Origin: a virus
Taxonomy: Duplodnaviria > Caudoviricetes
Direction: 5' to 3' (one strand)
Virus record (IMG/VR): IMGVR_UViG_3300046170_000323
DNA length: 64,000 nucleotides
Shown here: positions 1-64,000 of the stretch, piece after piece
Numbering within the stretch: the stretch's first letter is position 1
Layout of the letters: every line of letters starts with the position of its first letter
Notes under the pieces: generated by a model
Seen by the model: only the letters and a program-made list of their open reading frames with translations
Told to the model about the DNA's origin: nothing
The model's database searches: none
Translations under genes and position numbers: made by a program

Positions 1-1
1 T

Positions 2-331
2 GCATTCAAAAAGATGCCGATAGAAATACAGAAACAAAAACCTCGTTCTGTTCTCCAACACAACTACCACAAGTACGTTGTACGTTTTGAGGATCGGGAG
101 ACTCGTGACTTTATTAAGAAGTCTATAAAACAAACAGGGAAGTTCAAACCAGCTGTTCACTACGGTTGTCCACTTTCAGATCATGGTTGTTTTGATAACA
201 TAAACTTTCGTAAAGATGACACGCCTAATTCCAAGACCGCATCACAGACGATAATGTCACTACCTATCCATCCTTTCCTTACAGACGATGAGATAAATAC
301 CGTTATAGAATCAATCGTGGGAATATTATAG
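2..331 (+). CDS. DegT/DnrJ/EryC1/StrS sugar aminotransferase, C-terminal part (5' truncated by window)
   Basis: Frame open from base 2; C-terminal motifs YHKYVVR, VHY and SLPIHPFLTDDE typical of the family. Confidence 0.8.
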   Translation, partial: AFKKMPIEIQKQKPRSVLQHNYHKYVVRFEDRETRDFIKKSIKQTGKFKPAVHYGCPLSDHGCFDNINFRKDDTPNSKTASQTIMSLPIHPFLTDDEINTVIESIVGIL

Positions 332-332
332 T

Positions 333-1145
333 ATGAGTTCAGAAAAATTTGGATTTGGTATCGACTTCTATTTGACAAAGTCGTGTAACAAATCTTGCCA
401 TTATTGTACTGCATGGACAACTGAGATGAGAAATCTCGACATTGACATGGAGTTCGCAGCCCCTCTTCTTAAATGGTTATCACCATACAAAGCAAGAATC
501 AATCTTCTTGGTGGAGAACCTGCACTTACAAACAACTTAGATGAGATGATTGCAGAGATTAAGAAGTATCCTAATCTCACACCAGTTGTATTGTCTAACA
601 GTTTGATCAGAAAATTTTACCCTCACATCTTAGAAGATCCAGCCGTCCACTATGTGGAACATTTGGTATTGGACTTCTATGAAGATCGTATTGAGAAGTT
701 GGGCAACTATGACTTCCTAGAGGAAAACGAGAATAATAATTACAATGTGATTATCATGACTCCTAACTTCGAATTGTATAAGAAGAAACATGGACTCATG
801 GAACTGCATCACAAGAATACCTTGTTTAAAGAGTACAACTCAAGATCGCCCACTTACTCTACATTTGATCAGGAACCAGAGATGGTGAGACGTTTGTGTT
901 CTCTCTTCCCTCGTGTTCCAGTAATTGATTTTGAAATGAAAAAAATCCGACACTGTAGTAAAAAAGTTATCAACGGTTCTCGTCACTTTGATGTGACACA
1001 GGAGAACATTGATAAGATGATGAACTTCGATCTATTTGAATTCGAAAAGTACTGTCAAATGTGTACAGAGAAACTGTCTCGCAGAGGTAGTAAGATTGAA
1101 GCAGTGATGATGGATAAAATACTTGATAGGATGACAACAGCGTAA
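333..1145 (+). CDS. radical SAM protein
   Basis: CNKSCHYC (CxxxCxxC) and LLGGEP motifs. Confidence 0.8.
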   Translation: MSSEKFGFGIDFYLTKSCNKSCHYCTAWTTEMRNLDIDMEFAAPLLKWLSPYKARINLLGGEPALTNNLDEMIAEIKKYPNLTPVVLSNSLIRKFYPHILEDPAVHYVEHLVLDFYEDRIEKLGNYDFLEENENNNYNVIIMTPNFELYKKKHGLMELHHKNTLFKEYNSRSPTYSTFDQEPEMVRRLCSLFPRVPVIDFEMKKIRHCSKKVINGSRHFDVTQENIDKMMNFDLFEFEKYCQMCTEKLSRRGSKIEAVMMDKILDRMTTA

Positions 1146-2745
1146 TGGCACAGATCTTTGCCCAACCCCTAAACTTACATGATCATAACACATTCGACGG
1201 AAAGACACACATACAGTACGAGAGATACCCTGTATCATATCGTCGTAAACACTGTCACTGGCGGATAAAATATAACGAGAAGAATCCAGAACATCTCAGA
1301 ATGTTGGATCAACAAATTCCTTTTCAAAACATGTATAATGAATTGTTTGATCAAAACGCTGACTCTGAAACTATCCTCGCAATGAACCACACACTGAATG
1401 GTCTGAAACTGTACGGTGCGGATAGGTTCATTGAGAAGTTCGATGAATTTGGTAAAGATACCATTGGGTTCAATCCAAAAAACTTGTGGGACTATCAGGC
1501 ACAGGGTAATGTGTATTACACTGATCACCACCTCGCCCATGCAGCGCACACGTTCTTGTCTTCTGGTTACGAAGAGTCAGATATTTTTATCATCGATGGC
1601 GGTGGTAATATGTTCCGTTCTATCTTCGTTGACTCTAAAAAACAAGAAGTCGTTGATCTAAGTGATCATCTACCACTGGGTTGGTTGTGGAATGTCATGA
1701 CAAAAATTGGAGACTTTGGTGTACTTCAAGAAGGTAAACTTATGGGCCTCTGTAGGGTTACGGTAAGTTCGACATTCGTTGGTATGAGATATTCCATCTT
1801 ATGTTTGAAGAGTTCTGGAATCAGGCAGGTAAGTATTGGCCAGATCATCCATACTTCGAATCCTTCATGAAGAATGATAGTTGGAAAGTTGACATGGCTC
1901 ATACTCTACAACAGTTTACCTTAGATAAGATTGAAGAGATTGTATTACCATTGAAGACATCTAACAACCTATGTGTTGCAGGGGGTGTTGCATACAACGG
2001 TTATATGAACGAGATGTTAACCAAACACTGGGATAACGTTTATGTACCTTGTGCGCCTGGCGATGAGGGACAATCTATTGGTCTGTACATGCACGCTAAC
2101 TATGTTCTCAATGGAGAGGTAGACATCCCACCAATTTATATGGGGGATGAGTACGAAGTCGATCCACAGATCTTTGAAGGTTTGTCTGCAGAAGAGATGG
2201 ACTTTGATGACATCTGTTTAGTCGTTGCAAAAGAGATTGCGAATGGTGCAACAGTTGGTTGGCATCAAGGACGTGCGGAGAGTGGTAATCGTGCACTGGG
2301 TAATCGTAGTATTCTTGCAGATCCACGTGATGCTAGAATCAAAGACATTATCAATGGACGTATCAAGATGCGTGAAGACTTCCGTCCGTTTGCACCTAGT
2401 GTTCTGGTTGAACATTATCAAGACTATTTCGATACAAACCAACCAAGTCCATTCATGTCACGTATCATGCCTGTCAAGGAAGATAAGAAAGAGGTAATCC
2501 CTGGCGTCACTCACGTCGATGGAACCGCTCGTATCCAGACTGTTGATAAAGAGACTAATGAGAGATACTACAAAGTTATCGATGCATTCTATAAAGAGAC
2601 AGGTGTTCCTATGCTTGTTAACACCAGTTTCAATTGTCAAGAACCTGTGGTGGAGACACCGAAGAATGCAGTGGATACATTCAAGAGAACAGGACTTGAT
2701 ATTCTTGTGGTAGGGAATTGGCTAGTTAGAAAATGGAAAAAATAA
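1145..2745 (+). CDS. carbamoyltransferase (NodU/CmcH family), split by probable sequence indel near 1750-1757
   Basis: HHLAHAA, IDGGG and EGKLMGL in ORF 1145-1870; AGGVAYNG, GDEGQSIG, GRAESGNRALGNRSILADPR, FRPFAPSV and NTSFN in ORF 1801-2745; GYG resumes after a frame change. Confidence 0.85.
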
Positions 2746-3452
2746 ACTTATATAATAACACCATAGATCTTGACTATATGCGAACGTTAGTCAAATTTGG
2801 AGAAAGGTTTCCAGATCGTCAAAGTGATATCTGGGACTCTGTTTCTGCAAATCAGTTTGTTTCTAAAAAAGAACTGTTGACAACCATACTAGAAAGTGGT
2901 ATATTAACAGAGAAACTAACGGTAATAGTTATTGGATCTTGGTATGGATCTATCATCGTTCCTGTAATTGCGCCTTTGGTGAAGAAAGTAGTCTTGTTTG
3001 ATATTGACGAACAGACAACACATATGGCGTCAAACCTACACGATTATGATAACTGTGTTTACAGTACAGTGGACGTTACAAAATATAAGTCTGGAGAATT
3101 CGACACCGACGATCTGTTAATTATAAACACATCGTGTGAACATATGCAATCTATGTGTGATGTATTGGCACTTCAAAAATGCCCTTGGAATCACAAAAGA
3201 ACGCACTTTGCGTTTCAATCAAATAACATGTACGGTATCGAAGGACATGTGAACTGTAAAGACACAATAGATGATTTTAAGAAAGAACTGCCACCTCGTC
3301 ATCTAATTTTAAAACAACAAGGAATAACTGAAGAACGTGGCACCAGATATTTCTTATTCGGCATGTTACCGCCCAATCAATCGATGAGGTCAGATGGATC
3401 ACGTCAGTTGAATTTGAGGCAGAGAACAGAGCAAGGGGTTAAAAGAAAATGA
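2733..3452 (+). CDS. class I SAM-dependent methyltransferase-like protein
   Basis: VIVIGSWYG glycine loop followed by LFDID; INTSCEHM motif. Confidence 0.55.
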   Translation: MEKINLYNNTIDLDYMRTLVKFGERFPDRQSDIWDSVSANQFVSKKELLTTILESGILTEKLTVIVIGSWYGSIIVPVIAPLVKKVVLFDIDEQTTHMASNLHDYDNCVYSTVDVTKYKSGEFDTDDLLIINTSCEHMQSMCDVLALQKCPWNHKRTHFAFQSNNMYGIEGHVNCKDTIDDFKKELPPRHLILKQQGITEERGTRYFLFGMLPPNQSMRSDGSRQLNLRQRTEQGVKRK

Positions 3453-3985
3453 GTAATTTAAAAGAACTTACATGGGAACATCATGAGAAGGCTGAGACAT
3501 CTCAGTTCGCAACAACACTGATGAGTGGTGATATTACACCAAAAGAGTATCAGGAGTATTTGTTCAATCAGATGGTTTGTTATGGTGCACTTGAAGGTGC
3601 AGTAGATCTACCAGAAGAATACAAACGTGTGTTTCGTGCAAACGCAATCTTTGAAGACATGCATGAACTGATGAAAGAATTCAATCTTCAACCGATTGAA
3701 ACTGCACTAGAAACAACTGTAGAATACGTGAACTATATTGAGAGCATTAAGAATGATAACCATCGTCTTCTTGCACACTTGTATGTACGTCATTTTGGTG
3801 ACTTGCATGGTGGTCAGATGATCTCAAAGAAAGTGCCAGGCAGTGGTAAGTATTATCAGTTCGAAGATAGATATGAACTAATCAAAGGGATGCGTACATT
3901 ACTTGATGATTCGATGGCAGACGAAGCAAGAATTTGTTTTGATTTTGCATTTCGATCTTTCGAGGAAATGAGCACAGATGAGTGA
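3449..3985 (+). CDS. heme oxygenase (HemO/Ho1-like)
   Basis: LKELTWEHHEKAE proximal His helix; LAHLYVRHFGDLHGGQMI distal helix. Confidence 0.9.
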   Translation: MSNLKELTWEHHEKAETSQFATTLMSGDITPKEYQEYLFNQMVCYGALEGAVDLPEEYKRVFRANAIFEDMHELMKEFNLQPIETALETTVEYVNYIESIKNDNHRLLAHLYVRHFGDLHGGQMISKKVPGSGKYYQFEDRYELIKGMRTLLDDSMADEARICFDFAFRSFEEMSTDE

Positions 3986-4658
3986 GCACGCTGATAAGTT
4001 AAAAGGATTCGCATTTTTTCTCGAAACACAATTCGATAAATACCTCAACCAATGGGATAATAAAAAACACTTCCAACACCTTCATGGGTGGCAAGATGAT
4101 TTTTGGAATAGTGATCTCGTTGAAAAATGTCATCTTAAAACGATTGACTTGTTAGAAGAACGTAAACTATGGTTACTACATCTTAATATATTTCCACGGC
4201 CAGGCTGGGACATCCCTATCCTTGGTTGTGATATTGTTGCAGGCCCTAATAAGATTAGTGGTGCGTTCTTTGATTTTTCTCCAGTTGTCCATGACGATCA
4301 CGAAATGTGTAAACACTTCAATGATCAGACACAAAAGTTTACTTGGAAGAAACCACGTGAACTGCCTCCTTGGGCAAAGGAGATCTTCAGTGACCACATG
4401 ATGGCAATCGGAAACGTGCGTGGTGAGGAAACAGATAACTTCCTTCTTGCCATTTCCCAATTAATATGTTATTATCTAAAGAACATGGAAGATAAAGCAG
4501 TGCAGGTAGATTTCTCTACACGAGAGATCCTCAACAAGTATTGTATTAATCAGAAGAAGAATGATCAGTTGCACAACAGTATACGTGCAATGGGTATCAG
4601 TGACGAAGCAAAAGACTACTATGTAAACAACGTATTATTTGAAGAGATCAATGACTAA
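3978..4658 (+). CDS. pcyX: ferredoxin-dependent bilin reductase, PcyX/PcyA-like
   Basis: LHLNIFP, PILGCDIV, FFDFSPV and RELPPWAKEIFS motifs; overlaps heme oxygenase; PcyX versus PcyA not resolved without phylogeny. Confidence 0.75.
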   Translation: MSEHADKLKGFAFFLETQFDKYLNQWDNKKHFQHLHGWQDDFWNSDLVEKCHLKTIDLLEERKLWLLHLNIFPRPGWDIPILGCDIVAGPNKISGAFFDFSPVVHDDHEMCKHFNDQTQKFTWKKPRELPPWAKEIFSDHMMAIGNVRGEETDNFLLAISQLICYYLKNMEDKAVQVDFSTREILNKYCINQKKNDQLHNSIRAMGISDEAKDYYVNNVLFEEIND

Positions 4659-10150: not shown

Positions 10151-11529
10151 GGAATACTACCGAAAGGTATATCCTTATCTGAAACCAGATTACTTTGAAG
10201 ACTCAAATCTGCGCAAGGTGTTTGACACCTTCGCAGACTACGTTGAGAAGTACAAAGAGCAACCTTCCTTGGAAGCTCTTAAACTCACACTAGACAAAAG
10301 AAAAGACTTCAACGAAGACAGTTACTCACAAGTGATGTCTGTGGTCAATACTTTTGCACGTGATGAGGAAACAGATAACAAGTTCTTGGTTGATGAAACT
10401 GAAAAGTTCTGCCAAGACCGTGATCTGTATAATTCTATACGGCAATCAATTCAGATTCTTGAGGGTGAAGGGGGTGGACTCGAAAAGGGTTCCATCCCCA
10501 AACTTCTTTCAGACTCTCTTGGGATTAGTTTCGACACCAGTGTTGGACACGACTTCCTAGAAGACTTTGAAGGTAGATATGAATTCTATCACCGTAAAGA
10601 AGAACGCATCCCCTTTGATATTGACATCATGAATAAGATTACCAAAGGTGGTCTGCCTCGTAAGTCTATGACTGTACTACTCGCCACGACTGGTGGTGGT
10701 AAGTCATTGATCAAATGTCACATGGCTGCGAACCATCTCATGTACGGTAAGAATGTTCTGTACATCACTATGGAGATGGCAGAAGAAGAGATTGGTAGAC
10801 GTATTGATGCAAACATCATGGACGTGACTATTGATGAGATATCAATCACTCCACGTGATGTGTTCGAGAAACGTATGAACAGGTACAAGTCTAAGACGCC
10901 AGGCAAGTTGGTTATTAAAGAATACCCAACTGGTTCTGCACACGTTGGACATATGCGACATCTGTTAAACGAACTTCGTATGAAAAAGAATTTTCAACCA
11001 GATATCATATTTGTTGATTACCTCAACATCTGTTCATCTGCACGTGTTCGTGGCGCAGCCGCAGCCAATTCATACACATTGGTGAAATCTATAGCAGAAG
11101 AGGTACGTGGTCTTGCGATGGAATTTAATTGTGCTGTGGTTACTTCGTCTCAATTCAATCGTGATGGTTATGGGAATAGTGACGTTGACCTTACTAATAC
11201 TAGCGAAAGTATGGGGATAACACACACAGCAGACGCAATCTTTGGTCTAGTTACGACAGAAGAACTAGGATGATCTTGGTCAGATTATGATCAAACAACT
11301 CAAAAATCGTTGGGGAGATCTTGGTTATTACAGAAAGTTCCTTGTAGGGGTTGACAGATCCAAGATGAAGATATATGATTTAGAAGAGAGTGCACAGGAC
11401 AATATCGGTCAGTCAAGTGACGATAGAGTAAATGGAAACAAGCCTGATGACACTCCTCTATTTGATAAAACTTCTATTGGTACAACTAAGAAGAAGGACA
11501 TTTTCAGTATGACTGAAGGCCTTCAATAA
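10110..11529 (+). CDS. 41: gp41 replicative DNA helicase, split by probable extra G at 11268
   Basis: LATTGGGKS Walker A, YITMEMAE, VDYLNI, SESMG; C-terminal IKQLKNRW in ORF 11287. Confidence 0.93.
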
Positions 11530-11530
11530 T

Positions 11531-11538
11531 GATAAATA
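11531..11538 (+). promoter_or_regulatory. T4 late-promoter-like octamer GATAAATA
   Basis: One mismatch to TATAAATA, 33 nt before ATG 11571. Confidence 0.45.
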
Positions 11539-11570
11539 GGATTACAGAAACATCTAAAACGAGTGAAAAG

Positions 11571-12629
11571 ATGAAATCCTTTAAACAACACCTCACCGAA
11601 TCTATTAAGGCAGAGGACTTTGAGGCTGCTATTGTAATTGGTTGGCACGAAATCACAGGACAGGAACTAAATCCTAGTGATGCTGGTATATCTGATAAGG
11701 TATACCAGTCTCTCGTTGCACAACCAGAATATATCGAAGCAGGCAAAAAGATTGCCACGTCTATCCAGAAACATTTCAAGTTAGGTAATAACGTGAAAGC
11801 AGAACAGTACGGACGTGCCAAGTCCAAACTGACTGGTTTTTGGAAAGGATACGGTGCTTCAGATATCACACCAAAGACTGATATCCTAATCGGTGACAAA
11901 AGATTGTCTCTAAAGATTGGTATGGCACAGTTGATGTCTGGTGGTAAATCAGAGTCAACTGCAACCTTTTATGCGGCTCTAGAAAAATCACAGATCAATG
12001 AATCTGCACAACTGGGTAAGGTAACAAAGATCTTTGACGACTTCGTCACTGCATCACTTGCGCCAGGCAAACTAAGACCTATCATCAAGTCAGGCGAGAA
12101 TGAACTCGTCAACCGTGGTGAGAAGGCACACAAATTAGTTATGCAAGAACTTGGTACTCTGTTCGAAGAGAACGAGAAGTTCAAGATTGAATTTGCACGT
12201 GAAGCAATGTCTGGTTTCATGAAGTACGGTGAGAACGCAAATGCTGCTGCAGAATTCATGGTGGTATCAGATCACGCAGGTTCCTCTACAAAGATTACAT
12301 CAGTATATGACGATGCGTACTGTAAGAAGATCGCAGATCAGATGAAACTACAAGCACGTTTCAAAACGTCATCACGCAAACTCAAAGGTAAGAAGACAGG
12401 CGAGTATAACTTCTGGTCTGTCATTTCTCTTATCGTAGATGCTAAACTAAACGAAGACGTTGACACTCTTGACGAGAACATGTTCAAACGTATTGTTTCT
12501 AAAATCAAAGGTAAACTGGGTAACGCACTTAAGAAGGCGAAGTCTTTTGTTAAATCAAAGGCATCAAACGTTCTTAAGTTTTTCGGCGTTGAACCCGATA
12601 TCAAAGTAAACGACAAGGTAGAATTCTAA
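11571..12629 (+). CDS. putative head-internal protein with possible PD-(D/E)XK-like fold
   Basis: N-terminus MKSFKQHLTE; TPKTDILIGDKRLSLK resembles a D...xLK nuclease core. Confidence 0.45.
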   Translation: MKSFKQHLTESIKAEDFEAAIVIGWHEITGQELNPSDAGISDKVYQSLVAQPEYIEAGKKIATSIQKHFKLGNNVKAEQYGRAKSKLTGFWKGYGASDITPKTDILIGDKRLSLKIGMAQLMSGGKSESTATFYAALEKSQINESAQLGKVTKIFDDFVTASLAPGKLRPIIKSGENELVNRGEKAHKLVMQELGTLFEENEKFKIEFAREAMSGFMKYGENANAAAEFMVVSDHAGSSTKITSVYDDAYCKKIADQMKLQARFKTSSRKLKGKKTGEYNFWSVISLIVDAKLNEDVDTLDENMFKRIVSKIKGKLGNALKKAKSFVKSKASNVLKFFGVEPDIKVNDKVEF

Positions 12630-13873
12630 TGCAAAAGTTCAGTCAGTTTACTAATTTGTTATCAGAAGAAAAAAACCTTCACATGACACATGCAGAGGAT
12701 GCAGTGATAGATGGTGGAGTGACTGGTACACGCAACGTAATTAATTACCTTCGTGCAATTAGAGATATGTTAGGTGGTAACACCAAAGCGCCTGTAAACC
12801 TTTCAGTAAAGTGGGATGGTGCGCCTGCAATCTTTGCAGGGGTTGATCCATCAGATGGTAAATTCTTTATTGCAAAGAAAGGTGTATTTAACAAAAACCC
12901 AAAAGTCTATAAGACTGCCCAAGAAATTGATGATGATAGTTCTATTAAAGGTGACCTCAACTCCAAATTTAAAGTAGCACTTTCAGAGTTCTCAAAACTT
13001 GGAATTGAAGGAGTGATACAAGGTGATTTCCTCTATACTACGGAAGATCTTTCGACGGATGCTATTGATGGAGAATCGTATGTTACTTTCCATCCTAATA
13101 CGATTGTTTATGCGATACCAAAGAAAAGCGAACTCGCTAAAAAAATATCAAGATCCAAGATCGGTGTGGTCTGGCATACAGTCTACAGAGGAGAATCTCT
13201 TGAGACAATGTCTGCAAGTTTTGGAGAGAAGATTACACCTAATCTCAAAGAAGTAAAATCTGTATGGGCAGTTGATGCCGTATTCGAAGATAAGTCTGGT
13301 AGTGTAACCATGACTGCAAAAGAAACGGCGGCGGTGACTAAGAAACTGAGTGCCGCTGGAATGATCTTCAGAACAATCAAAAAAGATATCCTTAATGAGT
13401 TAGGAAACAACGAAGAGTTGAACCTACGTGTTAACACGTTCATTAATACTAAAGTTCGTGAAGGACAACGTATTGGTAATCCTAAAACATTCGTTAAGGG
13501 ACTTGTAAAATATATTCAAGACTACTATCAAAAAGAAGCCGACAAAAAGAAAACTGAAAAAGGTAAGAAGACGCAGACAGATAAGATGTCTAAAGCGTTG
13601 ACAATGTTCAGTGACAAGAATACCAAAGAGATCGAAAAGGTATTCGAACTCTACAATCTATTAGTCGACACCAAGTTGATGGTTCTTGACAAACTTAATA
13701 AAGTAGATAGTTTAAAAACATTCCTTAAAACAAATAAGGGATATGAAGTTACTAATCCAGAAGGATTTGTTGCAATGGATCACTTGGGTAAGAACTCTCT
13801 TAAACTCGTAGATCGCCTTGCATTTAGTAAGGCAAACTTTGATCCTCAGTATATCAAAGGATGGCAGAAATAA
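12629..13873 (+). CDS. ligase/nucleotidyltransferase-like protein (DUF6267-like)
   Basis: KWDG, QGDFLY, PEGFV and KLVDR resemble ligase motifs I, III, IV and V. Confidence 0.55.
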   Translation: MQKFSQFTNLLSEEKNLHMTHAEDAVIDGGVTGTRNVINYLRAIRDMLGGNTKAPVNLSVKWDGAPAIFAGVDPSDGKFFIAKKGVFNKNPKVYKTAQEIDDDSSIKGDLNSKFKVALSEFSKLGIEGVIQGDFLYTTEDLSTDAIDGESYVTFHPNTIVYAIPKKSELAKKISRSKIGVVWHTVYRGESLETMSASFGEKITPNLKEVKSVWAVDAVFEDKSGSVTMTAKETAAVTKKLSAAGMIFRTIKKDILNELGNNEELNLRVNTFINTKVREGQRIGNPKTFVKGLVKYIQDYYQKEADKKKTEKGKKTQTDKMSKALTMFSDKNTKEIEKVFELYNLLVDTKLMVLDKLNKVDSLKTFLKTNKGYEVTNPEGFVAMDHLGKNSLKLVDRLAFSKANFDPQYIKGWQK

Positions 13874-14641: not shown

Positions 14642-15205
14642 ATGGGAATGATACGTGATCGTGGACATGATGGTGGAAATACTTGGCGGTGGTTAGTCAT
14701 CGAAAAGATGGTACGTCAAAACGGATGGACTAAGGGCGCAGAACTTGGTGTGTGGCAGGGACAAACCTTCACGCATCTTGTACGTACTTGTAAAAACCTA
14801 AATTTGATTGGGGTAGATCTTTATGCACCTCAACCACAAAATAATGGGCCAGAGAAATGGACTGCAGGTGAAAACGGACACCCTTGGGATCACGAAACAT
14901 ATTACAATCGTATGAAACAGTTTTGCGCACAGTATCCAGATCGTGCATTTATTCATAAGGATTATACTACAGCGGTAGCAGACACATTAGAAGACGAGAG
15001 TCTCGACTTTGTTTTTATCGATGCGGATCATGGTTATGAAGGATGTTCACGTGATATTGACGCATGGGCTCCAAAGGTGCGTAAAGGTGGATACATCATG
15101 GGACATGATATTCACTTTGACACTGTTCTCAAAGCCGTGACAGAACGTTACGGTGATAACTATAACGTAGAAGACGACTTCATTTGGTGGGTAGAAAAAC
15201 AATGA
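14642..15205 (+). CDS. class I SAM-dependent methyltransferase (Methyltransf_24-like)
   Basis: GAELGVWQG, GVDLY, DFVFIDADHGY and GGYIMGHD motifs. Confidence 0.85.
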   Translation: MGMIRDRGHDGGNTWRWLVIEKMVRQNGWTKGAELGVWQGQTFTHLVRTCKNLNLIGVDLYAPQPQNNGPEKWTAGENGHPWDHETYYNRMKQFCAQYPDRAFIHKDYTTAVADTLEDESLDFVFIDADHGYEGCSRDIDAWAPKVRKGGYIMGHDIHFDTVLKAVTERYGDNYNVEDDFIWWVEKQ

Positions 15206-15852
15206 ATATCGAAAAGAAAATAACTCAGATCTGGATTGGGCCAAACCCTGCGCCGATGGCATGGATGGACACTTGGAAAGAAAAACATCCAGAATGGGAA
15301 TATGAAATATTTACAGATCAGATGTTGAAGGATCGCAAATGGATGAACCAACATCTCATCGAACACTATTATAATAACAAGAGATGGGCAGGCGTTTCAG
15401 ATCTTATCCGTTACGAACTACTACTAGAACGTGGGGGTTTCTTTCCAGAGGCAGACATGGAGTGTTATCATAACACTGATGAACTGTTTACTTCCCCACC
15501 ACATATTGCATATACTTGTTATGAAAACGAATTGTATCGTGCAAACTTTGTACAACCAGTTCTTGCTTGCAATCCTGGCAATATGTTTGTTCGTATGTTG
15601 GTAGAGACACTACACCAACTTCGTGCAGATCAACTGCATTACGAACCATTCAGATCTACAGGTAATGAGTTCTTGAGTAAACATATTCCAATGAACCTAG
15701 ACAAAGTAAAAGTCTGGCCTTCACATTACTTCATCCCACAGTTCTATGTACGTGAGTCGAAGAGATATGACGGTACTGATAAGGTCTATGCGGAACATCA
15801 TTGGGGTTCTACTGGAATGCCTTGGACAAAACAGTACTCAACTGCTACCTAA
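15202..15852 (+). CDS. glycosyltransferase, GT32/DXD sugar-binding family
   Basis: KITQIWIG, TWKEKHPEWEY, SDLIRYELLLERGG..EAD; start at ATG 15202. Confidence 0.8.
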   Translation: MNIEKKITQIWIGPNPAPMAWMDTWKEKHPEWEYEIFTDQMLKDRKWMNQHLIEHYYNNKRWAGVSDLIRYELLLERGGFFPEADMECYHNTDELFTSPPHIAYTCYENELYRANFVQPVLACNPGNMFVRMLVETLHQLRADQLHYEPFRSTGNEFLSKHIPMNLDKVKVWPSHYFIPQFYVRESKRYDGTDKVYAEHHWGSTGMPWTKQYSTAT

Positions 15853-15962
15853 TGCATGGTGACAGAGGAAATATGCTCACCGTAAAGGTAATGGTTATTC
15901 TATGTGTGGTTTTACACTTTGTAGTCATACCAATATGGATGTGGAGTTTAGGATTACATTGA
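15852..15962 (+). CDS. 36-aa hydrophobic small protein
   Basis: Coupled to both neighbours (TAATG, TGAATG); one TM-like segment; below ORF-track cutoff. Confidence 0.5.
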   Translation: MHGDRGNMLTVKVMVILCVVLHFVVIPIWMWSLGLH

Positions 15963-16724
15963 ATGTTTATATCACACAAATACAAATTTATTTTTCTTAG
16001 AGTTCCGAAGACTGCCTCAACTAGTCTTTCGGAATTCTTTGTTCGTAACATAGACGATCCAGATGCATTTTACACAGACGTAGATGATGCAAATCTTGAT
16101 GGGACTGTGCCTCATGATAAACTCAAAGAGATTAGAGGAGTACACGAACACTACAAACCCTTCTCACACCTACATTTAAATCTAAAAGAACTCGTTGATC
16201 ATGGTATAGTAACACCAGAACAAATCAACGAGTATTATTGTTTTGCGGTTCTCAGAGATCCTATTGAAAGACAAAAGAGTTTTTACTACTTCTTTAAGAA
16301 GTGGGAAGATGAGAGATCTGGTAAGAAACCCTATGATATAGACGATTACAAATTCATGGCACCTAATGGGTGGTTTGATGGTGACAAGGCAACAGGTGAA
16401 GATAACTCTAAACTACTTCAGTCCGATTTCCTCATGTATGATGGTAAACAACAAGGTGAGTATTGGTTATATGAAAATATAATGGATCACCTTATAGAGT
16501 TTATGAATAAACTTGATTTGGAAATAAAACACCCATTGAAAAAACACAAATCAAATTTTAGAGTAGATAAAATTGATGAGTCCAAGTCATTTAATTTTGA
16601 TCACCAAGCAATCACCTCAATGAGACATTATTATAAAAATGACTTCAACTTATATTCATTATTAAAGAGACAATATCATGCAGACACAACGAGCTTACAT
16701 ACTTACAATAGACAAACCAATTAG
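15963..16724 (+). CDS. sulfotransferase family 2 protein
   Basis: FIFLRVPKTASTS 5'-PSB loop and VLRDPIERQKS 3'-PB motif. Confidence 0.85.
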   Translation: MFISHKYKFIFLRVPKTASTSLSEFFVRNIDDPDAFYTDVDDANLDGTVPHDKLKEIRGVHEHYKPFSHLHLNLKELVDHGIVTPEQINEYYCFAVLRDPIERQKSFYYFFKKWEDERSGKKPYDIDDYKFMAPNGWFDGDKATGEDNSKLLQSDFLMYDGKQQGEYWLYENIMDHLIEFMNKLDLEIKHPLKKHKSNFRVDKIDESKSFNFDHQAITSMRHYYKNDFNLYSLLKRQYHADTTSLHTYNRQTN

Positions 16725-17404
16725 TCGTGAATACGCACAACATGCATCTGCTTCTTGTGATGAGATAGGTCTCAACTGGGAGTACTTCGAAGGTTGGTGT
16801 GATATCCCTGGCGTTCTTGCATGGGCAAGATCGGGGATTAATTTGCGTATAAACGAGGGGAGACCAATTAAACTTCCCCCTGCAGATCTGGATTACCCAC
16901 CAAATCCAAACTTACCTATGGGTGAGAAAGCAGAGTGTTGTACGGTTGGTCATGCTGCGATATGGAAAAAGATTGCAGAGGGTGAAGAGGATGTAGGTAT
17001 TGTGTTAGAACATGATGCAATTATGTTACATTCTGTGGACATTGAAATACCAGAGAATAATATGGTTGTTTTAGGATACAAACTAGACAAACCTAATAGG
17101 TATGATCATTTGACTGCAGGGCCCTGCAGTGAGACTTGTACCAATCAGAGGACATGAAGGTGCACATGCATATGCGATGACTAAGAAAACAGCGCAGATA
17201 TTGATTGATGAGATCGAAACAGGTGGTCGATTAGGGTGTGTAGATAATGCATATTTCATCTTAAATCAAAGACGCACAAAGGTTCCTCTATGTATCGCAG
17301 ACCCAACACCCGCTTTAGGTTGGTTAAGGGCATCTACTATTTGGCAGGAATCTGCACATGTTAACTACGAATTTCTTGATTCATTCAAACAGAATTATAA
17401 ATAA
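16678..17404 (+). CDS. glycosyltransferase family 25-like, split by probable indel at 17119-17124
   Basis: CCTVGHAAIW, VLEHDA and downstream GAHAYAMT motifs. Confidence 0.7.
17396..17403 (+). promoter_or_regulatory. T4 late promoter TATAAATA
   Basis: Exact consensus 33 nt upstream of ATG 17436. Confidence 0.8.
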
Positions 17405-17435
17405 ACAGTAAAACACAAATTACAAGAGAATAATC

Positions 17436-22093: not shown

Positions 22094-22482
22094 AACGTTT
22101 TAAACAATATACTGTAGAAAATTTTGGTTTGTACGAGGGGGTAACAGTTCCCCTCGAATCTCCTATGATAGAAATAGATCCTATCGTATGTGAAGAGAAA
22201 GAACCAGAACTCAACTCTCCAAAAAGAAATAGTGGGGATGGCAAAAAGTATGTTGTTTATGTAAAGGATCCGAAGACAAGTAATGTCAGAAAGATAACAT
22301 TTGGGGATGAAAAGGGTGGATTGACATCTAAGATTGGTGACAGAGATGCAGCACGTGCATTTGCAAGTCGTCATAGTTGTGATACTAAGACTGATAAGAT
22401 GACGCCTGGATATTGGGCGTGTCGTCTACCGAAATATGCAAAACAGTTAGGATTAAGTGGTGGCGGAGATTACTTTTGGTAG
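22090..22482 (+). CDS. putative head-internal protein (DUF6321-like)
   Basis: N-terminus MKRFKQYTVE; KKYVVYVKDPKT...FASRHSC...GYWAC module. Confidence 0.5.
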   Translation: MKRFKQYTVENFGLYEGVTVPLESPMIEIDPIVCEEKEPELNSPKRNSGDGKKYVVYVKDPKTSNVRKITFGDEKGGLTSKIGDRDAARAFASRHSCDTKTDKMTPGYWACRLPKYAKQLGLSGGGDYFW

Positions 22483-44168: not shown

Positions 44169-44179
44169 AAGGAAAAATT

Positions 44180-45142
44180 ATGAGCGTAGTATATAAAGGT
44201 CAAGTGATTGATTCTGAACTATCTAAAAACTCGTTTGGTGGCACAGAAATGATGCGTGAACGAGTTATCAAGAATGTAGACCCACAGTGGTTGGATAAAG
44301 TTGCAATTCACTTTTCTCGTCCACGTCAATTGTTCGATGATGTATTGAACATCATGTACTGCCACGATCTTGCAGAAGATCCAGAGAATAATATTCTTGC
44401 GAATGGTGGATGGCAAAAGTTTGATCACTTTGTCTTTGTCTCTGCATGGCAACGTGACCAATACATAGATAGGTTTGGTATCCCTTATTCGAAGAGTACC
44501 GTAATCTACAATGCGGTGGAAACACAATATGACCCTTATCAAAAAGATGTGGAAACAATTCGTTTCATTTATCACACTACTCCTCATAGGGGTTTGGAGC
44601 TTCTCGTTCCTATTTTTGATTCTCTATCTCAGCATTTTCCTAATATTCATTTGGATGTTTATTCGTCTTTTGGGATTTACGGTTGGGAACAGAGGGACGA
44701 ACCATACAAACCTCTTTTCGAAAGAATCGAAAACCACGAAAAAATGACCTATCATGGGCATCAACCCAATGATGTTGTCTTGGAAGCTTTGAAGAAGTCT
44801 CACATCTTTCTCTATCCAAACATCTGGAAAGAGACATCGTGTATTGCAATGATCGAAGCAATCAAAAACCAATGTATTGTCATTCATCCAAACTACGGTG
44901 CATTGACAGAGACTGCGGCTAATGCGACAATCGTTTACGAATATAACGAAGACAAGGGTGCACATGCGAACTATGCATTCTCCATTGCTGCACAACTCCT
45001 CAAAGTTCAACAGGAGAACCCAAACTATTTTAATCGTTTCACATTCAGTGATCGATACAACCTTGCGAGAAACAATATCGATTCCTTCACAAACGTGTGG
45101 AATCAGGTTCTCTCGCTACTAGTACAGGAGTCCGAAAAATAA
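44180..45142 (+). CDS. glycosyltransferase, GT-B fold (GT4-like)
   Basis: GGTE, HTTPHRGL and YPNIWKETSCIAMIEA motifs. Confidence 0.85.
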   Translation: MSVVYKGQVIDSELSKNSFGGTEMMRERVIKNVDPQWLDKVAIHFSRPRQLFDDVLNIMYCHDLAEDPENNILANGGWQKFDHFVFVSAWQRDQYIDRFGIPYSKSTVIYNAVETQYDPYQKDVETIRFIYHTTPHRGLELLVPIFDSLSQHFPNIHLDVYSSFGIYGWEQRDEPYKPLFERIENHEKMTYHGHQPNDVVLEALKKSHIFLYPNIWKETSCIAMIEAIKNQCIVIHPNYGALTETAANATIVYEYNEDKGAHANYAFSIAAQLLKVQQENPNYFNRFTFSDRYNLARNNIDSFTNVWNQVLSLLVQESEK

Positions 45143-47912: not shown

Positions 47913-48314
47913 ATGGCAAATCCAGACTATGCTGCGTTACTTGCACAGATCGCTGCAGAAACGGATCCAGTTCTAAGACAAGCGTTAATTGATCAAGCAT
48001 ATTCCTTCCAAGAGGAATTGACTGATGAAGAAATTGAACTATTTGAATATACACAGTTTGGTTATATTGATCCAAACCCTGGCGTCTTTCAAGACACGAG
48101 TGCATTTTACTTTACGCCAGGCTATGTCGATGTTGATTATGTTATCACGGCCGCAACCTCGTATGTAGATATATATTATGTAGCAAATAATTATTTTGAA
48201 GATGCATTTGGTACTGAACCAGAATACGCTGCCTTCGTCGGTAACTACTTCGACGACACTGGTGCGAACACTGGCGGGCCATATGATCCAAGCGATTATA
48301 TATCACAATTTTAA
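47913..48314 (+). CDS. acidic hypothetical protein
   Basis: 133-aa ORF between spike tip and fibre. Confidence 0.55.
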   Translation: MANPDYAALLAQIAAETDPVLRQALIDQAYSFQEELTDEEIELFEYTQFGYIDPNPGVFQDTSAFYFTPGYVDVDYVITAATSYVDIYYVANNYFEDAFGTEPEYAAFVGNYFDDTGANTGGPYDPSDYISQF

Positions 48315-48332: not shown

Positions 48333-51300
48333 ATGGCGATTACAAAACGAATTACAAAAGGTTCATCCCTCACGTATCAAGAGATGGATGACAACCTCGA
48401 GCAGATTGCCCCCTCGCACCAGTTCTACTGGATCTATTCAAATCCCTGCAGGGACTACTGCAGAACGTGACAGTTCGCCAGCAGCAGGTTATCTGAGGTA
48501 CAACAACCAACTCAACCAGTTTGAAGGATACACCACTTCTTGGGGTGCACTCGCTGGCGGAGGCGGAGGCGGTGGTGAAGTAAACCAAAACGCATTCAGT
48601 ACTTTCTCAGTATCTGGTCAAACCAATATTGATGCGGATAGTTCAACTGACACTATCAACTTCGCCGCAGGTTCGAACATCACTCTGACAACAAACGCAT
48701 CGACTGATACTCTTACTATCGCTGCGTCATTCTCACAAGACTTTGCATACAGTTCCTTGACTGGTACACCTACTACAGTGTCAGGTTACGGTATTACAGA
48801 TGCACAACCACTTCTTGTGTCTGGTACAAATATCAAGACTGTTAACGGCAACTCTCTTATGGGTTCTGGTGATATCTCACTTACTGCCTCTACAGATTGG
48901 TCGACGATCACAAACAAACCAAACACAATATCAGGTTTTGGCATTATCGATGCATTCGATGGTGCATACTCTTCGTTGACAGGCACTCCTACAACCTTGT
49001 CTGGTTATGGTATTACAGATGGGCAGTCAACTCTCGTATCTGGTTCTTCAATCAAAACAATCAATGGTGTTTCTGTTCTTGGTTCTGGTGACTTAACAGT
49101 TACAGGATCTTATGGAGACTCTGATGTTTCTTCACACCTCAACACATTAAGTGCGACAACTGGACAAGTTCTTTCTTGGACAGGTATCGACTTCCAGTGG
49201 ATTGCGGCAGGCGGTGGTGGTGGATCTGAGACAGATCCAGTCGTAGGTGGAATCACTGGTATTGTTAAGGCGGATGGTAGTGGTAATATATCTGCTGCAG
49301 TTTCGGGTACAGATTATTCAACTTTCGATGGTGACTGGAACAGTCTCACTAATACACCCACAACTCTTACTGATGCAGGCATTGTTGCAGGTCTTCTTGA
49401 TTTAACAAATTCTAATAGTAACAATATCAACGATGGTTCAGCTGGACAATACCTTCAAACGGATGGAAATGGAAACTTTAGTTTTTCAACCGTATCAGGT
49501 GGCGGCGGTGGTGCATCTGCATGGACTGCTCTTTCTGATACACCTAACAACTATGTTGGTGCACAAAACCAAGTCGTTACAGTTAACTCTCAGGCAACAG
49601 GATTAACATTTACAACTCTTAACTCTGGTGCAGAATCAAACGATCTATCATCTATTGTTACTTGGGACATTGTACCAGATGCATACATTTCTAATACAAG
49701 TGTCGTACAACACCAATCAGATCTTCGTATTACAGAAAGTCAAATCACTGACTTACAGGCCTATCTTCTAACTGAAACTGATCCAGTCTTTAGTGCACAT
49801 ACTACTGCAAACATCAACAACGGCAGTGGTTTTCTTGCACAAGATGGTGCAGGTAACTGGTTCTACGATTCGAACACCTTATATCACAAGTACGGCTGTA
49901 GAAACAGATCCAGTCTTTACTGCGCATACAACGTATGACATTGTTCAAGGCACAGGTCTACTTGGAAACTTGGGAACTGCAAACTCTTGGTATTATGATT
50001 CAAACACATACATTCAAGGTTCAGATGTTCCAGACAACGAGACTGATCCAATCTTTAGTGCGCATACTACATCAAGCATCAACAACGGTTCTGGTTTCCT
50101 AAAACAAGACGGAGCGGGTAACTGGTTTTATGACTCGAACACATATGTAACATCTGCAGGTTCTGAAACAGATCCTGTTTTCACTGCGCATACCACATAC
50201 AATATCGCTAATGGTCTTGGATTGTTGAAGAACGATGGTGGTGGAACATGGTCATATGATAACGCTACTTACCTATCAGCTGAACTAGATCCAATCTTCG
50301 ATGCGCATACAACGTCTGACATTGTAGATGGTGAAGGTTTCCTAAGACAAGACAGTGCGAACAACTGGTATTGGGATGCAAATACTTACATTACAGCGAA
50401 TGATATCCCTGCATCTTCACTTACTCTAGACGATGTTACCACGAACGGTAGTTCCACAACTAACTCAATTGAAGTTGGTGCGGCGACAGTCGGCGGTGTT
50501 AACGTCATGTTGGAAGGTTCGAACAATGCACTTTTGTCAAACGGTGCATCATTCATTACCTTAGAAGATCTAAGTGCAACTGGTGACGTAACCTATGATA
50601 ACACAACTGGTGTGTTCTCTGCAAACATTGTGTCTACTGGAATTGAATTAAACGATCTTACTGCGATTGACGATCCAACACCAAGTGGAAACGGTTCACT
50701 AAGTTACTCTAGTTCTAACGGTACATTTGTATTCACTCCACCAGATCTTTCTGGACTAGGCGGAGGCGGTGGATCTGAAACAGATCCAGTCTTTGGTGCT
50801 TCTGCAGTTGCAAACGTTGTGGCAGCCGGATCAGGTACAGATGGTTTCTTGAGAAACTATAACGGTGAGTGGTACTATGATGCAAACACTTACAGTACTT
50901 CTACAGTCGCAAACCTTGATGATCTAGGAGATGTATCAATTTCTGGTCTTGCAGATAACGAAACCCTGCTTTGGGATTCGGGACAATCTGTGTTTGTAAA
51001 CGGTACGATAGACTCTCTTATAGATACGCATTTAAATCAATCAAACCCAACAACTGGATATGTTCTTTCTTGGGATGGTGCAGATTATGCATGGGTCGCA
51101 CAGTCAGGTGGTGGCGGCGGTGGTGGTATCGCATTAACAGACTTGAGTGCATCAACTGCAGCTGCAGGTACTGCAGATCTATCTTATGACAATACAACTG
51201 GTGTGTTTACTTACACTCCACCAGATTTAAGTAGTTATCTGACTTCATATACAGACACTCTGGCAGATGTAACCAATAGAGGAAATACCTCTACGGCAGG

Positions 51301-56566: not shown

Positions 56567-57298
56567 ATGCGTGTTATGTTAACAGGTCACAGAGGTTTTA
56601 TAGGTAGTTACCTATATGATCGATTGGTAGATGAAGGTATGGATGTTGAAGGCTACGATATCATAAGTGGTCAAGATCTCTTCGACTGCCCTCTACCAAA
56701 AGATCCCCCTGATCAGATTATCCATCTCGCAGGCCTAAGTGGTGTGCGTGATAGTATGAAAGATCCAGCGGGATACTGGCGTAATAATGTTGAAGTATCT
56801 AAAAGATTATTCGAACGTTATCCTCGTACCAGAATTCTATATGCGAGTTCTTCTAGTATATACGAACCAGACTTGAATCCATATGCTGCGAGTAAGTATA
56901 TTGTGGAAGAGTCGGCACAAAGACACCCCAACACATTAGGAATGCGATTCCATACTGTATATTCAGATAAACCACGTAAGGGAATGTTCTTACAAAAGTT
57001 ACTGGATGATGAGTTAGAATACGTTACTACTCACAGACGTGACTTTATTCATTTAGAGGATCTCTGTGATGCAATCCAATTGTTGATGGAACATCCCATA
57101 GGCGGATATACAGATATAGGTACAGGAGATCCAGTAAAGGTTTCGGATCTAGCGCCCAGTTCATTACCAGTAAAATTGAACACACCAAATGAAAGAGAAT
57201 ACACTTGTGCAGATATTCACAATCTGCAAGATCTAGGATGGACACCCATTCATGATGTGAGGAAACTAAAACATGGCGTACAGAACAGCCCAGAGTGA
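56567..57298 (+). CDS. NAD-dependent epimerase/dehydratase
   Basis: TGHRGFIG, HLAG, YASSSS, YAASK and RDFIH motifs. Confidence 0.92.
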   Translation: MRVMLTGHRGFIGSYLYDRLVDEGMDVEGYDIISGQDLFDCPLPKDPPDQIIHLAGLSGVRDSMKDPAGYWRNNVEVSKRLFERYPRTRILYASSSSIYEPDLNPYAASKYIVEESAQRHPNTLGMRFHTVYSDKPRKGMFLQKLLDDELEYVTTHRRDFIHLEDLCDAIQLLMEHPIGGYTDIGTGDPVKVSDLAPSSLPVKLNTPNEREYTCADIHNLQDLGWTPIHDVRKLKHGVQNSPE

Positions 57299-58638: not shown

Positions 58639-58856
58639 TATACAAGTGGTTTGGTACGGTATGTTTTCTATCGGCCGCAATTCTGTTGTCAGCTAACATC
58701 GAATGGTCTCGTTATGGTTTCTTTGTTTTCCTTACTGGTCACATAGTACTGAGTTATTACTTCTGGTTTAGACAAAAAGATGCAGCTCTCGCAACACAGA
58801 ATACTTGTTTTATTCTGATTGATGCAATGGGTATATACAGGTGGTTTATTGCTTGA
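58635..58856 (+). CDS. small three-TM membrane protein
   Basis: Three hydrophobic segments; ATGA-coupled. Confidence 0.6.
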   Translation: MIYKWFGTVCFLSAAILLSANIEWSRYGFFVFLTGHIVLSYYFWFRQKDAALATQNTCFILIDAMGIYRWFIA

Positions 58857-59190: not shown

Positions 59191-59225
59191 AATAGTGTAA
59201 GTTGAGAAAAGAAAGAGAGTTTGAT

Positions 59226-59564: not shown

Positions 59565-59575
59565 GGAGAACTGAA

Positions 59576-61069: not shown

Positions 61070-61079
61070 TCTAATATCA

Positions 61080-62724: not shown

Positions 62725-62732
62725 TTACTCTC

Positions 62733-63173
62733 CTAGTCCGTTTCGAACTCTATGCCTCCGCCATTGTTTAATTTGCGTAGTGCATCTAATTCTGCTTGTA
62801 ACTTTAAAACTTCTAATCTTTTTTTCCTCAACTCTAATTCATATAATGAATTGCAGTTGATTCTCTGTTTTGGTTTGTCGAGAGGTATTGTTATCCTTGC
62901 ATACACACCCACGTCTCTCGAACTCTCAAATCCATCCGCACCGTTGTTGCCAAATGGACTCTCATAGTTATCTATAATACCAGTCACGCCAAATTCTAAA
63001 TTAGTAGAACCACCTATTGAGTTCTTACAATCCAAACCATCAGGAGTTCTGATACTGTCTTGTCCATAGGAACCACCTGAGTTGGGAATCGCAAGGTTGA
63101 TACCACTTGTTTCTGATTGTGCAGTTGATGAAATAAACATAATCATTAATGCACTCATAATAAACCGTTTCAT
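62733..63173 (-). CDS. secreted hypothetical protein
   Basis: Signal-peptide-like N-terminus, two Cys, C-terminal coiled coil. Confidence 0.65.
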   Translation of the reverse strand: MKRFIMSALMIMFISSTAQSETSGINLAIPNSGGSYGQDSIRTPDGLDCKNSIGGSTNLEFGVTGIIDNYESPFGNNGADGFESSRDVGVYARITIPLDKPKQRINCNSLYELELRKKRLEVLKLQAELDALRKLNNGGGIEFETD

Positions 63174-63566
63174 TTAATATAGCCTTCTCTCTTTGACCTT
63201 GGAACAAATCCTAGACTTAATTGCAGTTCGTTTCAGATTTTCTTTCCTCAGTTTAGACTTCGAACAAATGTACACAACTCTTTTTACATCTCCTCGTTGT
63301 ATATAAATTTCTATTGTCGCACTTGTTAAATATGGTATCTTATATACCTTATATTTAGATACAAATGGGATTGGTTGCCAATCTCCATCAAAAACACCCA
63401 CCTCATAATATTCCACATCACTACGTTTATTAAACATCGTCATGGTGGTAGCATAAAGCCCGTCCATGAAAGATGGTCTAAACTTAGGATATGTTGGCAC
63501 CATTTCGTGTGCGTTGACACTGGTTGTAAAAACCAGTGCCAATAAAATGTATAATGCTTTCTTCAT
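63174..63566 (-). CDS. secreted protein, possibly pilus-chaperone-like Ig fold
   Basis: Signal peptide ending VNA; beta-rich; start moved to MKKALY. Confidence 0.55.
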   Translation of the reverse strand: MKKALYILLALVFTTSVNAHEMVPTYPKFRPSFMDGLYATTMTMFNKRSDVEYYEVGVFDGDWQPIPFVSKYKVYKIPYLTSATIEIYIQRGDVKRVVYICSKSKLRKENLKRTAIKSRICSKVKERRLY

Positions 63567-63664
63567 AATCTCTTTCTTAAGTATCATCACGGACATCCAC
63601 CTAATCTTCTACATGTTGGACTAGGGTTCACTACTGGTGAAGGGGTTCCGCTAGATCCTCCCTT

Positions 63665-64000
63665 TCATTGAGCAATGCACTCAGCAGTTACAAGCGCAGT
63701 ATAGTTACCGCCTGGAAATGCTTTAGATCCACCCATAGTCGCAACAGATGAAGTCTCAAACCATGTAGATCCAGTTGCAGTCAGATCATAACGATCTGTC
63801 ATTCCAAGTTCTACCTTGTTTGTTTCGTACGATCCCATACCTGTGGCATCAGACATTGCATCTACTTCAGTATCACCAGTCCAAGTTACTACGTCTGGCA
63901 GATTTGGAGATGAACTGAATTCAGTTGGTGGCGTAATTTCTACGTAATATGCATCAGCGAGTGATACGTCCACACGAATACGTGCATCTTCACCACCATC
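63665..64000 (-). CDS. fimbrial/pilin-like beta protein, C-terminal part (truncated by window)
   Basis: Frame open to window end; ends FPGGNYTALVTAEC (G-x-Y-x-x-x-V-T strand). Confidence 0.45.
   Translation of the reverse strand, partial: DGGEDARIRVDVSLADAYYVEITPPTEFSSSPNLPDVVTWTGDTEVDAMSDATGMGSYETNKVELGMTDRYDLTATGSTWFETSSVATMGGSKAFPGGNYTALVTAECIAQ

Follow-up and report, generated by a model that had tools for sequence, protein, structure and literature searches.

In a 64,000-nucleotide stretch of DNA from a virus of the Caudoviricetes (IMG/VR record IMGVR_UViG_3300046170_000323; hereafter the window), restriction-type words have been purged over the whole length, positions 1 to 64,000, as judged from counts against shuffled sequences, and the survivors are found only where the centre of the trinucleotide 5'-GCY-3', or 5'-RGC-3' on the other strand, falls inside the site (Y, pyrimidine; R, purine; other degenerate bases follow the usual one-letter code). 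How can a phage genome tolerate a word in one context and remove it from all others? With a probability of roughly 0.6, we consider that a sequence-specific DNA modification at GCY/RGC, constant in the lineage, shields these sites, and the evidence for it is strong but indirect. The purge and the shield rule are directly visible in the sequence; that the shield is chemically a modification is what we infer from them. The original prediction, made by reading the sequence, was that hosts restrict such sites and that the phage escapes only where a mark at GGC/GCC covers them. Its purge and its cover are supported and even generalise to many other words, while the shield is broader than it supposed, including GCT/AGC as well.

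The window has a GC content of 40% and is part of the genome of an uncultured marine T4-like myovirus; it encodes gp32, gp59, UvsX, a gp41-type helicase, class I ribonucleotide reductase, ThyX, RNase H, and PhoH. Nucleotide search among isolated phages gave no close match to the window; the best protein-level matches are distant T4-like phages, and UvsX is less than 58% identical to that of any isolate. Several metagenome assemblies, among them marine ones (Tara), contain near-identical contigs. Positions 1-44937 match the IMG/VR contig G002 at 98.9% identity, and another contig, G005, overlaps both the end of the window and the start of G002, by which a composite genome of 211,585 bp (G002 + G005) is closed. 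The longest contig carrying one of the proteins of this genome is 219 kb.

All 34 CCWGG sites in the window have a G on the 5' side or a C on the 3' side: 31 are CCWGGC, 24 are GCCWGG, 21 have both flanks, and three are GCCTGGA. The ten CCAGG among them are all GCCAGGC, and each of the nine CCGG is either GCCGG or CCGGC. GGACC and GGTCC do not occur at all (0 and 0) while GGCCC and GGGCC occur 16 and 18 times, and CGCG is absent where codon shuffles predict 65.4 copies. These recounts reproduce the numbers and positions given in the original prediction. Is it possible that such a flank bias is just a chance event or a by-product of codon usage? As a null, 200 synonymous-codon shuffles were made, in which the protein sequences and the codon usage of the genome are preserved. 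Unflanked sites, HCCWGGD and HCCGGD, are then expected 43.3 +/- 4.7 and 33.1 times, and GGWCC 44.2 times, and none of the three is present even once. Conversely, the doubly flanked GCCWGGC is found 21 times against 1.3 expected. The two words which the original prediction had regarded as unconstrained controls hold up in the same shuffles, with 38 CCWWGG against 36.0 and nine GGATCC against 10.4. Shuffles preserving dinucleotides lead to the same conclusion (HCCNGGD, 0 against 58.3 +/- 8.2). Thus, chance does not account for the bias, as had been claimed, and the shuffled controls do not reproduce it. Outside the window the rule continues: in the 72.8 kb upstream, taken from G002, the flanked fractions are 26/26 for CCWGG and 5/5 for CCGG with neither GGWCC nor CGCG, and in the composite they are 115/115 and 21/21, with no GGWCC against 183 expected and no CGCG against 230. 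The observation is therefore confirmed, and it is stronger than first reported.

Then, why do any of these sites exist? In the window, 32 of the 34 CCWGG begin at codon position 1 of a plus-strand gene, and 116 of the 121 CCNGG in the composite are in-frame Pro-Gly. Since Pro-Gly is always encoded by CCN-GGN, these sites cannot be recoded away. It had been stated that Pro-Gly codon choice alone does not explain the pattern; this is right for the flanks, but Pro-Gly does explain the existence of the sites themselves. The Gly codon at these 116 dipeptides is GGC in 98 cases (84%), although GGC makes up only 11.6% of all Gly codons. Moreover, the codon preceding Pro-Gly ends in G in 80 of 116 cases, while the codons used for these amino acids ahead of other prolines would predict 18.1 (p = 1e-37). 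For example, Thr before Pro-Gly is ACG in 14 of 15 cases and Lys is AAG in seven of eight, whereas before other Pro codons Lys is AAA 129 times and AAG three times. No Pro-Gly in the composite lacks both protective flanks (0/116). A doubly shielded forced site is seen at positions 2055-2061 on the plus strand, where GCCTGGC contains CCT-GGC in frame for Pro-Gly, and a singly shielded one, GCCTGGA, at 22404-22410 on the same strand, where Gly is encoded by GGA and the final G of the preceding codon provides the shield. The reverse dipeptide, Gly-Pro, always forces GGN-CCN, and all of 128 occurrences use GGC or GGG; GGT and GGA are never used there, though they account for 80% of Gly codons. This is why GGSCC is common in the genome. 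Both dipeptides are also rarer in the composite than amino-acid composition predicts (116 Pro-Gly and 128 Gly-Pro, against 170).

The rule can be put in a general form: for a site to survive, it has to include the middle C:G pair of GCY/RGC. Over 18 motif families in the composite, shielded copies number 544 against 460.6 expected (observed/expected ratio 1.18), whereas exposed copies number 19 against 1362.8 (0.014), and the classical families alone, that is, CCWGG, CCSGG, CCGG, GGNCC, CGRYCG, GRCGYC, CCATGG, and CTCGAG, agree with this. In an unbiased scan for all cores of 4-6 nucleotides that escape the purge only where one given base lies on their 5' side, only two contexts recur, G|CC with nine cores and T|CG with four. 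G|CC rescues CCWGG, CCSGG, CCGG, CCTCC, CCCGT, CCGAG, CCATGG, and CCCGCA. Of CCCGT, 29 shielded copies stand against a single exposed one (100 expected); of CCTCC, 27 against 13 (181 expected); and all eight CCATGG are shielded. Likewise, G|CT brings CTCGG and CTCGAG back to the general level of GCT; the sole CTCGAG of the window, at 48396-48401, reads G|CTCGAG on the minus strand and is shielded in this way. If a site ends with GC, it is the next base that matters: CCCGC is followed by a pyrimidine 59 times and by a purine four times, TCCTGC 28 and three times, GTCCGC 12 times and never, and GCACGC 11 times and once, respectively. At least a dozen motifs with no relation to one another are thus rescued by one shield, on either strand, and the rule holds for sense, antisense, and non-coding DNA, asymmetric motifs included. 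Because the geometry with CY inside the site and that with GC inside the site share just the central C:G pair, this pair would be what carries the protection.

The shield also acts from within a site. Among the CGRYCG words of the composite, CGATCG (27 expected) and CGACCG/CGGTCG (30 expected) have disappeared, while CGGCCG, which holds GCC/GGC internally, remains with three copies against 5.8; in the window, the only two CGRYCG against 18.1 expected are both CGGCCG, at 48148-48153 and 58672-58677. Motifs that are unable to hold a GCY centre, namely CGCG, GGWCC, CGATCG, CGACCG/CGGTCG, GACGTC, and GGTACC, are all at zero where 27 to 236 copies are expected. If all 6-mers are surveyed, none of the 129 that contain GCC/GGC but not AGC/GCT is depleted below 0.2, whereas 40 of the 1432 that contain none of GCC/GGC, AGC/GCT, and TCG/CGA are. 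It is to be noted that shielded copies of recodable motifs are present at about the expected number, so that the protection looks complete and not merely like the effect of a better flank.

The second context from the scan behaves differently. CGWCG occurs 144 times in the composite, and every copy is TCGWCG or CGWCGA (for instance at composite positions 200, 4112, and 6207); VCGWCGB is absent against about 95 expected, and absent from the window against 21.3. T-flanked copies are present at the expected number with no excess of double flanks. We considered TCG/CGA as a second general shield and rejected it, because CGCG, CGATCG, and CTCGAG are not rescued by it. The CGWCG rule may instead reflect the 7-bp specificity of one nuclease. 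It is common to the relatives G003 and G006 and does not appear in the lineage of the loci L013/L104.

How widely is the footprint distributed? Relatives whose UvsX is at least 85% identical (G003, G006, and the loci L012-L023 and L103-L109) have neither exposed CCNGG nor exposed CCGG, and their AGC/GCT is depleted two- to three-fold; relatives at 79% identity or below, including the 99-kb contig G004, do not have the footprint. Among the former, the purged words differ. GGWCC is purged in the present lineage and in G006, not in G003; CCCGC is purged in the present lineage and in G006, and TCCTGC in the present lineage only; the L013/L104 lineage has purged neither CGCG nor CGWCG. If a trait fixed in the phages meets host nucleases that vary, it is just this combination that one would expect, the shield staying constant and the purged words changing. 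A Tara contig, L131, in which one gene of the window has a counterpart with 56% identity, also has no exposed CCNGG (about 52 expected) and no exposed GGNCC (23 expected), with an observed/expected ratio of 0.47 for AGC and a normal frequency of CGCG. Another carrier, L133, has no footprint. Positions 1-4741 of L131 carry curli-type CsgF and CsgG, FecR, and a CHASE2-guanylate cyclase gene.

Single-base indels in the window are another possible trace. Between the window and G002 there are 454 substitutions and 28 gap columns, and insertions in the window relative to G002, at 1751/1754, 11267, 34914, 35160, 35594, and others, split genes that are intact in other assemblies, including those for a carbamoyltransferase (532 residues), the gp41-type helicase (472 residues), and 5-aminolevulinate synthase (ALAS, 397 residues). 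Since these genes are intact elsewhere, the insertions, most of which are at RGC/GCY, are probably read errors. Of the uncompensated 1-bp indels, 16 in all, at least 10 are within or directly beside RGC/GCY, where about two would be expected by a rough estimate, not a computed one, that takes RGC/GCY positions as some 10-15% of the sequence. They are found in GGGCCC (17119-17124), in GGGGCC (37023 and 40982), in GGCCC (35594), in AGCCC (35160), in GCT (5726), in AGCT (29234), in GGCT (14011), between two AGC (34914), and in an A-run abutting AGC (8851). Because AGC/GCT is hit too, GCY/RGC fits as the motif better than GGC alone. Native long reads typically show motif-linked indels where bases are modified, and the clustering could thus reflect errors on modified native DNA.

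The putatively modified motif itself is rare. AGC and GCT in the window are equally depleted on both strands, with 281 and 282 copies against 629 and 458 in codon shuffles; relative to the outgroup, AGC/GCT in the clade stands at 0.37 and GGC/GCC at 0.62. TGCA (490 against 355) and GATC (369 against 287) are enriched in the window. The AGC/GCT depletion always co-occurs with the shield footprint.

By what process might such a pattern have been built? Many restriction-type nucleases press on the lineage, and some 18 site families have been purged nearly to zero by synonymous recoding. We propose that a constant mark sits on the central pair of 5'-GCY-3'/5'-RGC-3', that is, on the C of GCY or the G of RGC, and that a nuclease site containing the marked pair is protected so that no selection acts against it. 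The unrecodable Pro-Gly (CCNGG) and Gly-Pro (GGNCC) would be put under this shield by codon choice, the former with GGC as Gly codon and a preceding codon ending in G, and the latter with GGC or GGG.

It is fair to collect here what weighs against a modification. The evidence for a mark is a footprint in the sequence, and contigs covering the whole genome of about 211.6 kb gave no match to any DNA-modifying family searched. Some of the 18 motif families were picked after the data had been seen. Shielded CCGG is still under-represented (21 against 56), and CCTCC keeps its 13 exposed copies. As CGWCG shows, flank dependence can come about with no general shield behind it, and a flank rule by itself is thus no proof of modification; for this reason the argument for GCY depends on how many motifs and geometries obey it. 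Depletion of the putatively modified motif needs an extra assumption, for which one may speculate that the mark is costly or that hosts have nucleases dependent on modification. Finally, the indel argument, which depends on the sequencing platform of the window, is suggestive only.

If there is a mark, what writes it? The writer is a phage enzyme that has escaped recognition, or else it belongs to the host. We tentatively prefer the former, with a mark that is bulky and encoded by the phage; a bulky group is favoured over methyl because protection looks complete against many different nucleases. A mark installed by the host is the main alternative and seems rather unlikely. Two writers had been suggested together with the original prediction, an enzyme system for 7-deazaguanine (dPreQ0) at GGC and a C5 methyltransferase of GCC type, and the searches supported neither of them. 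TGT/DpdA (PF01702) has no match in G002, G003, G004, G005, and G006, while the same search matched 14 of 14 control genomes, and phmmer searches of the six-frame translated composite with DpdA, FolE, QueD, Gat-QueC, and QueE of phage 9g gave a best E-value of 0.18 (2.8 for DpdA). The C5, N4/N6, D12, N6_Mtase, and Dam methyltransferase families (PF00145, PF01555, PF02086, PF02384, and PF05869) have no match in G002 + G005, and neither does Tet_JBP (PF12851) in the contigs covering the whole genome, so there is no Tet_JBP beside a C5 methyltransferase. Pfam searches for RE_HaeIII and QueC were negative or borderline. A regular-expression screen found no (D/N/S)PP(Y/F/W/H) in any enzyme-sized open reading frame, and no open reading frame that pairs PCQ with ENV.

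Several individual genes were considered. A PP-loop/QueC-like ATPase at 35178-35864 on the plus strand, 228 residues in G002 and frameshifted in the window, just reaches the QueC cut-off (22.3 bits against 22); as a marker of the footprint it was abandoned, because the partial contig G003, in which the adjacent ALAS gene is retained, yielded no copy of it. A 187-residue Methyltransf_24 domain protein (14642-15205, plus strand) belongs to a PHROG family labelled 'DNA methyltransferase', but it is unlikely to be the writer: it is present also in footprint-free relatives, and among solved structures the nearest to it is a small 'methyltransferase domain protein'. A clade-restricted protein of 239 residues (2733-3452, plus strand) shows faint similarity to S-adenosylmethionine (SAM)-dependent methyltransferases. 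It is a weak lead, unsupported as a writer, since the Atlas was uninformative and a single-sequence model was unusable (predicted local distance difference test score, pLDDT, 39). Comparison of gene content between the clade and the outgroup, which is incomplete, nominated no writer.

More can be said about a possible nuclease. The gene at 11529-12629 on the plus strand, which adjoins the helicase gene and has no recognisable methyltransferase partner, encodes a protein of 366 residues for which AlphaFold2, from an alignment of 34 sequences, gives a model with a pLDDT of 76.9. The model appears to adopt a restriction-endonuclease fold like that of HinP1I, MspI, and HhaI: the top Foldseek matches are MspI and HinP1I, and the VIA-align Z-scores are 10.2 for HinP1I (185 aligned residues, root-mean-square deviation 4.0), 8.9 for MspI, and 6.9 for HhaI, the next being 4.7. 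With 171-204 residues aligned to these three enzymes, the predicted shared fold would cover most of the catalytic domain. In a search of the model for D...(N/Q/E)xK, invariant TD118...S127-x-K129 was found on adjacent strands, and these may be the catalytic residues. At the sequence level the protein has no Pfam match and no match to restriction endonucleases. It has more than 330 metagenome homologues, some with Tara records. A gene for a DUF6267 protein of 414 residues (12629-13873, plus strand) adjoins the nuclease-fold gene in the three lineages examined, and in L133 one gene lies between them. Structure and literature searches with DUF6267 gave no lead; speculatively, it is a candidate for a partner activity.

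Such a gene invites the thought that part of the purge is self-avoidance, in which the phage removes from its own genome, or keeps under the shield, the targets of its own host-DNA-degrading nuclease or nucleases in the manner of chloroviruses. This would complement a modification and not exclude it, and we regard it as possible but doubtful. The nuclease-fold protein without a recognisable methyltransferase, its conservation in marine phage contigs, hundreds of them, and the SNase and PD-(D/E)XK genes also present in the genome all fit this idea. Yet a common fold does not prove an active, sequence-specific nuclease, and the tie of the protein to the footprint is only putative. A 4-mer missing from every carrier of the gene was looked for, and there is none; L133 has a homologue and nevertheless shows neither purge nor AGC depletion, while L012 shows the footprint and no homologue was found there.

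Could the pattern arise without any modification? The nucleases themselves might reject G before CC or Y after GC, their true targets being longer words such as HCCWGGD. A single protective flank suffices, as it would if a dimer were deprived of one of its half-sites, and the CGWCG rule looks like just such a specificity, with TCG shielding no other motifs. However, this would require one and the same trinucleotide exception, at either end, in over ten unrelated specificities, both palindromic and asymmetric. Longer targets also leave unexplained the internal case, where CGGCCG stays while all other CGRYCG are gone, the strength with which a second flank is selected at Pro-Gly, and the clustering of indels at RGC/GCY. 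For these reasons we consider this explanation distinctly improbable.

Two known chemistries survive less well. One is a conventional C5 or N4 cytosine methyltransferase encoded by the phage with GCC/GCY specificity, or a pathway of GpC C5 methyltransferase, TET, and glycosyltransferase. GCY is close to known short specificities, such as those of GpC phage methyltransferases and the RGCY of the chlorovirus M.CviJI, and the genome has many glycosyltransferase and sugar-tailoring genes, but with every methyltransferase and Tet_JBP family search and the motif screen negative, this is very improbable. The other is 7-deazaguanine, as dPreQ0 or dG+, put in at GGC by a DpdA transglycosylase as in phages CAjan and 9g. 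GGC is one of the two motifs of CAjan, at which HaeIII is blocked, and the PP-loop protein reaches the QueC cut-off. Against it stand the negative PF01702 and 9g-gene searches, the missing QueC-like gene in the partial G003 contig, and the GA context, which gives no shield at all (HCCWGGA, 0), so that little credence is left for it. Explanations by a preference for codon pairs or in translation, by biased mutation, or by faulty assembly can be largely dismissed. It is true that nearly every CCNGG encodes Pro-Gly and that one codon pair is favoured there, and the depletion of AGC/GCT beside enrichment of ACT/AGT, AAC/GTT, and GAC/GTC could hint at a mutational component. But synonymous shuffles fail to reproduce the pattern, it holds irrespective of strand and coding, exact zeros against expectations of 180-236 are out of reach of bias alone, and independent assemblies (G002, G005, G003, G006, and L131) show the same.

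How does a GCY/RGC modification compare with systems already described? In Escherichia phage CAjan, dPreQ0 at GA and GGC blocks HaeIII (PMC7544227). As in CAjan, where the mark is post-replicative and limited to motifs, the mark proposed here, read from sequence alone, would occupy a short motif including GGC and cover overlapping sites such as the HaeIII site GGCC. Unlike CAjan, the motif is RGC/GCY, GA does not shield, DpdA/preQ0 genes were not detected, and the virus is a marine T4-like myovirus of about 212 kb and not a siphovirus of the Queuovirinae. Hypermodification of cytosine by GpC-specific C5 methyltransferases, TET (5mYOX) enzymes, and glycosyltransferases has also been described in phages, with doubt expressed by the authors as to whether marks so sparse are able to protect a genome (PMC8256090; bioRxiv 10.1101/2023.12.21.572611). 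The present genome would show a way, in that whatever the mark leaves uncovered has been purged. A putative mark on a GpC-type context with sugar-tailoring enzymes nearby resembles these clusters; different from them are the need for a 3' pyrimidine (GCY) and the lack of any C5 methyltransferase or Tet_JBP match.

Virus-borne restriction-modification is known from chloroviruses, in which CviJI cuts RG^CY, a nuclease is accompanied by a self-protecting modification, and YGCR words such as TGCA are spared. The present case shares with it a putative GC-centred specificity of 2-3 bp in a large virus and an enrichment of TGCA, and differs in having no methyltransferase like M.CviJI and a nuclease-fold protein that resembles HinP1I/MspI. 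With classical restriction-site avoidance it has in common that palindromic 4-6-mers are counter-selected far below a codon-aware expectation, many to zero. Not like the classical case, about 18 families are affected, the avoidance is conditional on trinucleotide context, and it is coupled to codon choice at dipeptides that cannot be removed. Motif-limited modification of phage DNA is already known; here it would be coupled to recoding of the whole genome.

Some other features of the genome are to be recorded. A heme/bilin gene set lies at window positions 3449-4658 and 33988-35181, consisting of heme oxygenase, ferredoxin-dependent bilin reductase, and ALAS, the last being described as bona fide on a TIGR01821 match of 470 bits. 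ALAS represents the alphaproteobacterial route to 5-aminolevulinate, and for this reason the host may not be a cyanobacterium. The content of sugar and tailoring genes is very large (G002 44.6-72.8 kb; window 1-3452, 14642-21491, 43410-45142, and 56567-57298), with two NodU/CmcH-type carbamoyltransferases, a DegT aminotransferase, glycosyltransferases, a sulfotransferase, nitroreductases, TauD, a fatty-acid desaturase, several radical-SAM proteins of which one is a B12-dependent KedN5-like C-methyltransferase, and a 1351-residue cytidylyltransferase/DUF5824/zeta-toxin-like protein. These enzymes may act on glycan, virion, or DNA. Beyond the window, giant structural open reading frames of 3763, 3283, 2025, 1859, and 1299 residues stand in a row at G005 42.9-74.9 kb.

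What would a GCY/RGC modification tell us about these phages? As one speculative and rather doubtful picture, widespread marine T4-like phages might write a probably bulky GCY/RGC mark with an enzyme family not recognised so far as DNA-modifying, and the mark together with a phage-borne HinP1I/MspI-like nuclease might form a module of attack and self-protection, in which purging handles most of the sites and the shield covers the rest. Candidate writers in such a module would be DUF6267, or unassigned genes for sugar metabolism, radical-SAM chemistry, or carbamoyl transfer. The motif of a modification, down to its critical base pair, may be readable from sequence by finding the context in which otherwise purged words are tolerated. 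A sparse mark limited to a trinucleotide can protect a 212-kb genome if the genome has been recoded around the mark, including the codons of Pro-Gly and Gly-Pro. In marine phages that are abundant and uncultured, the finding points to a writer not yet recognised.

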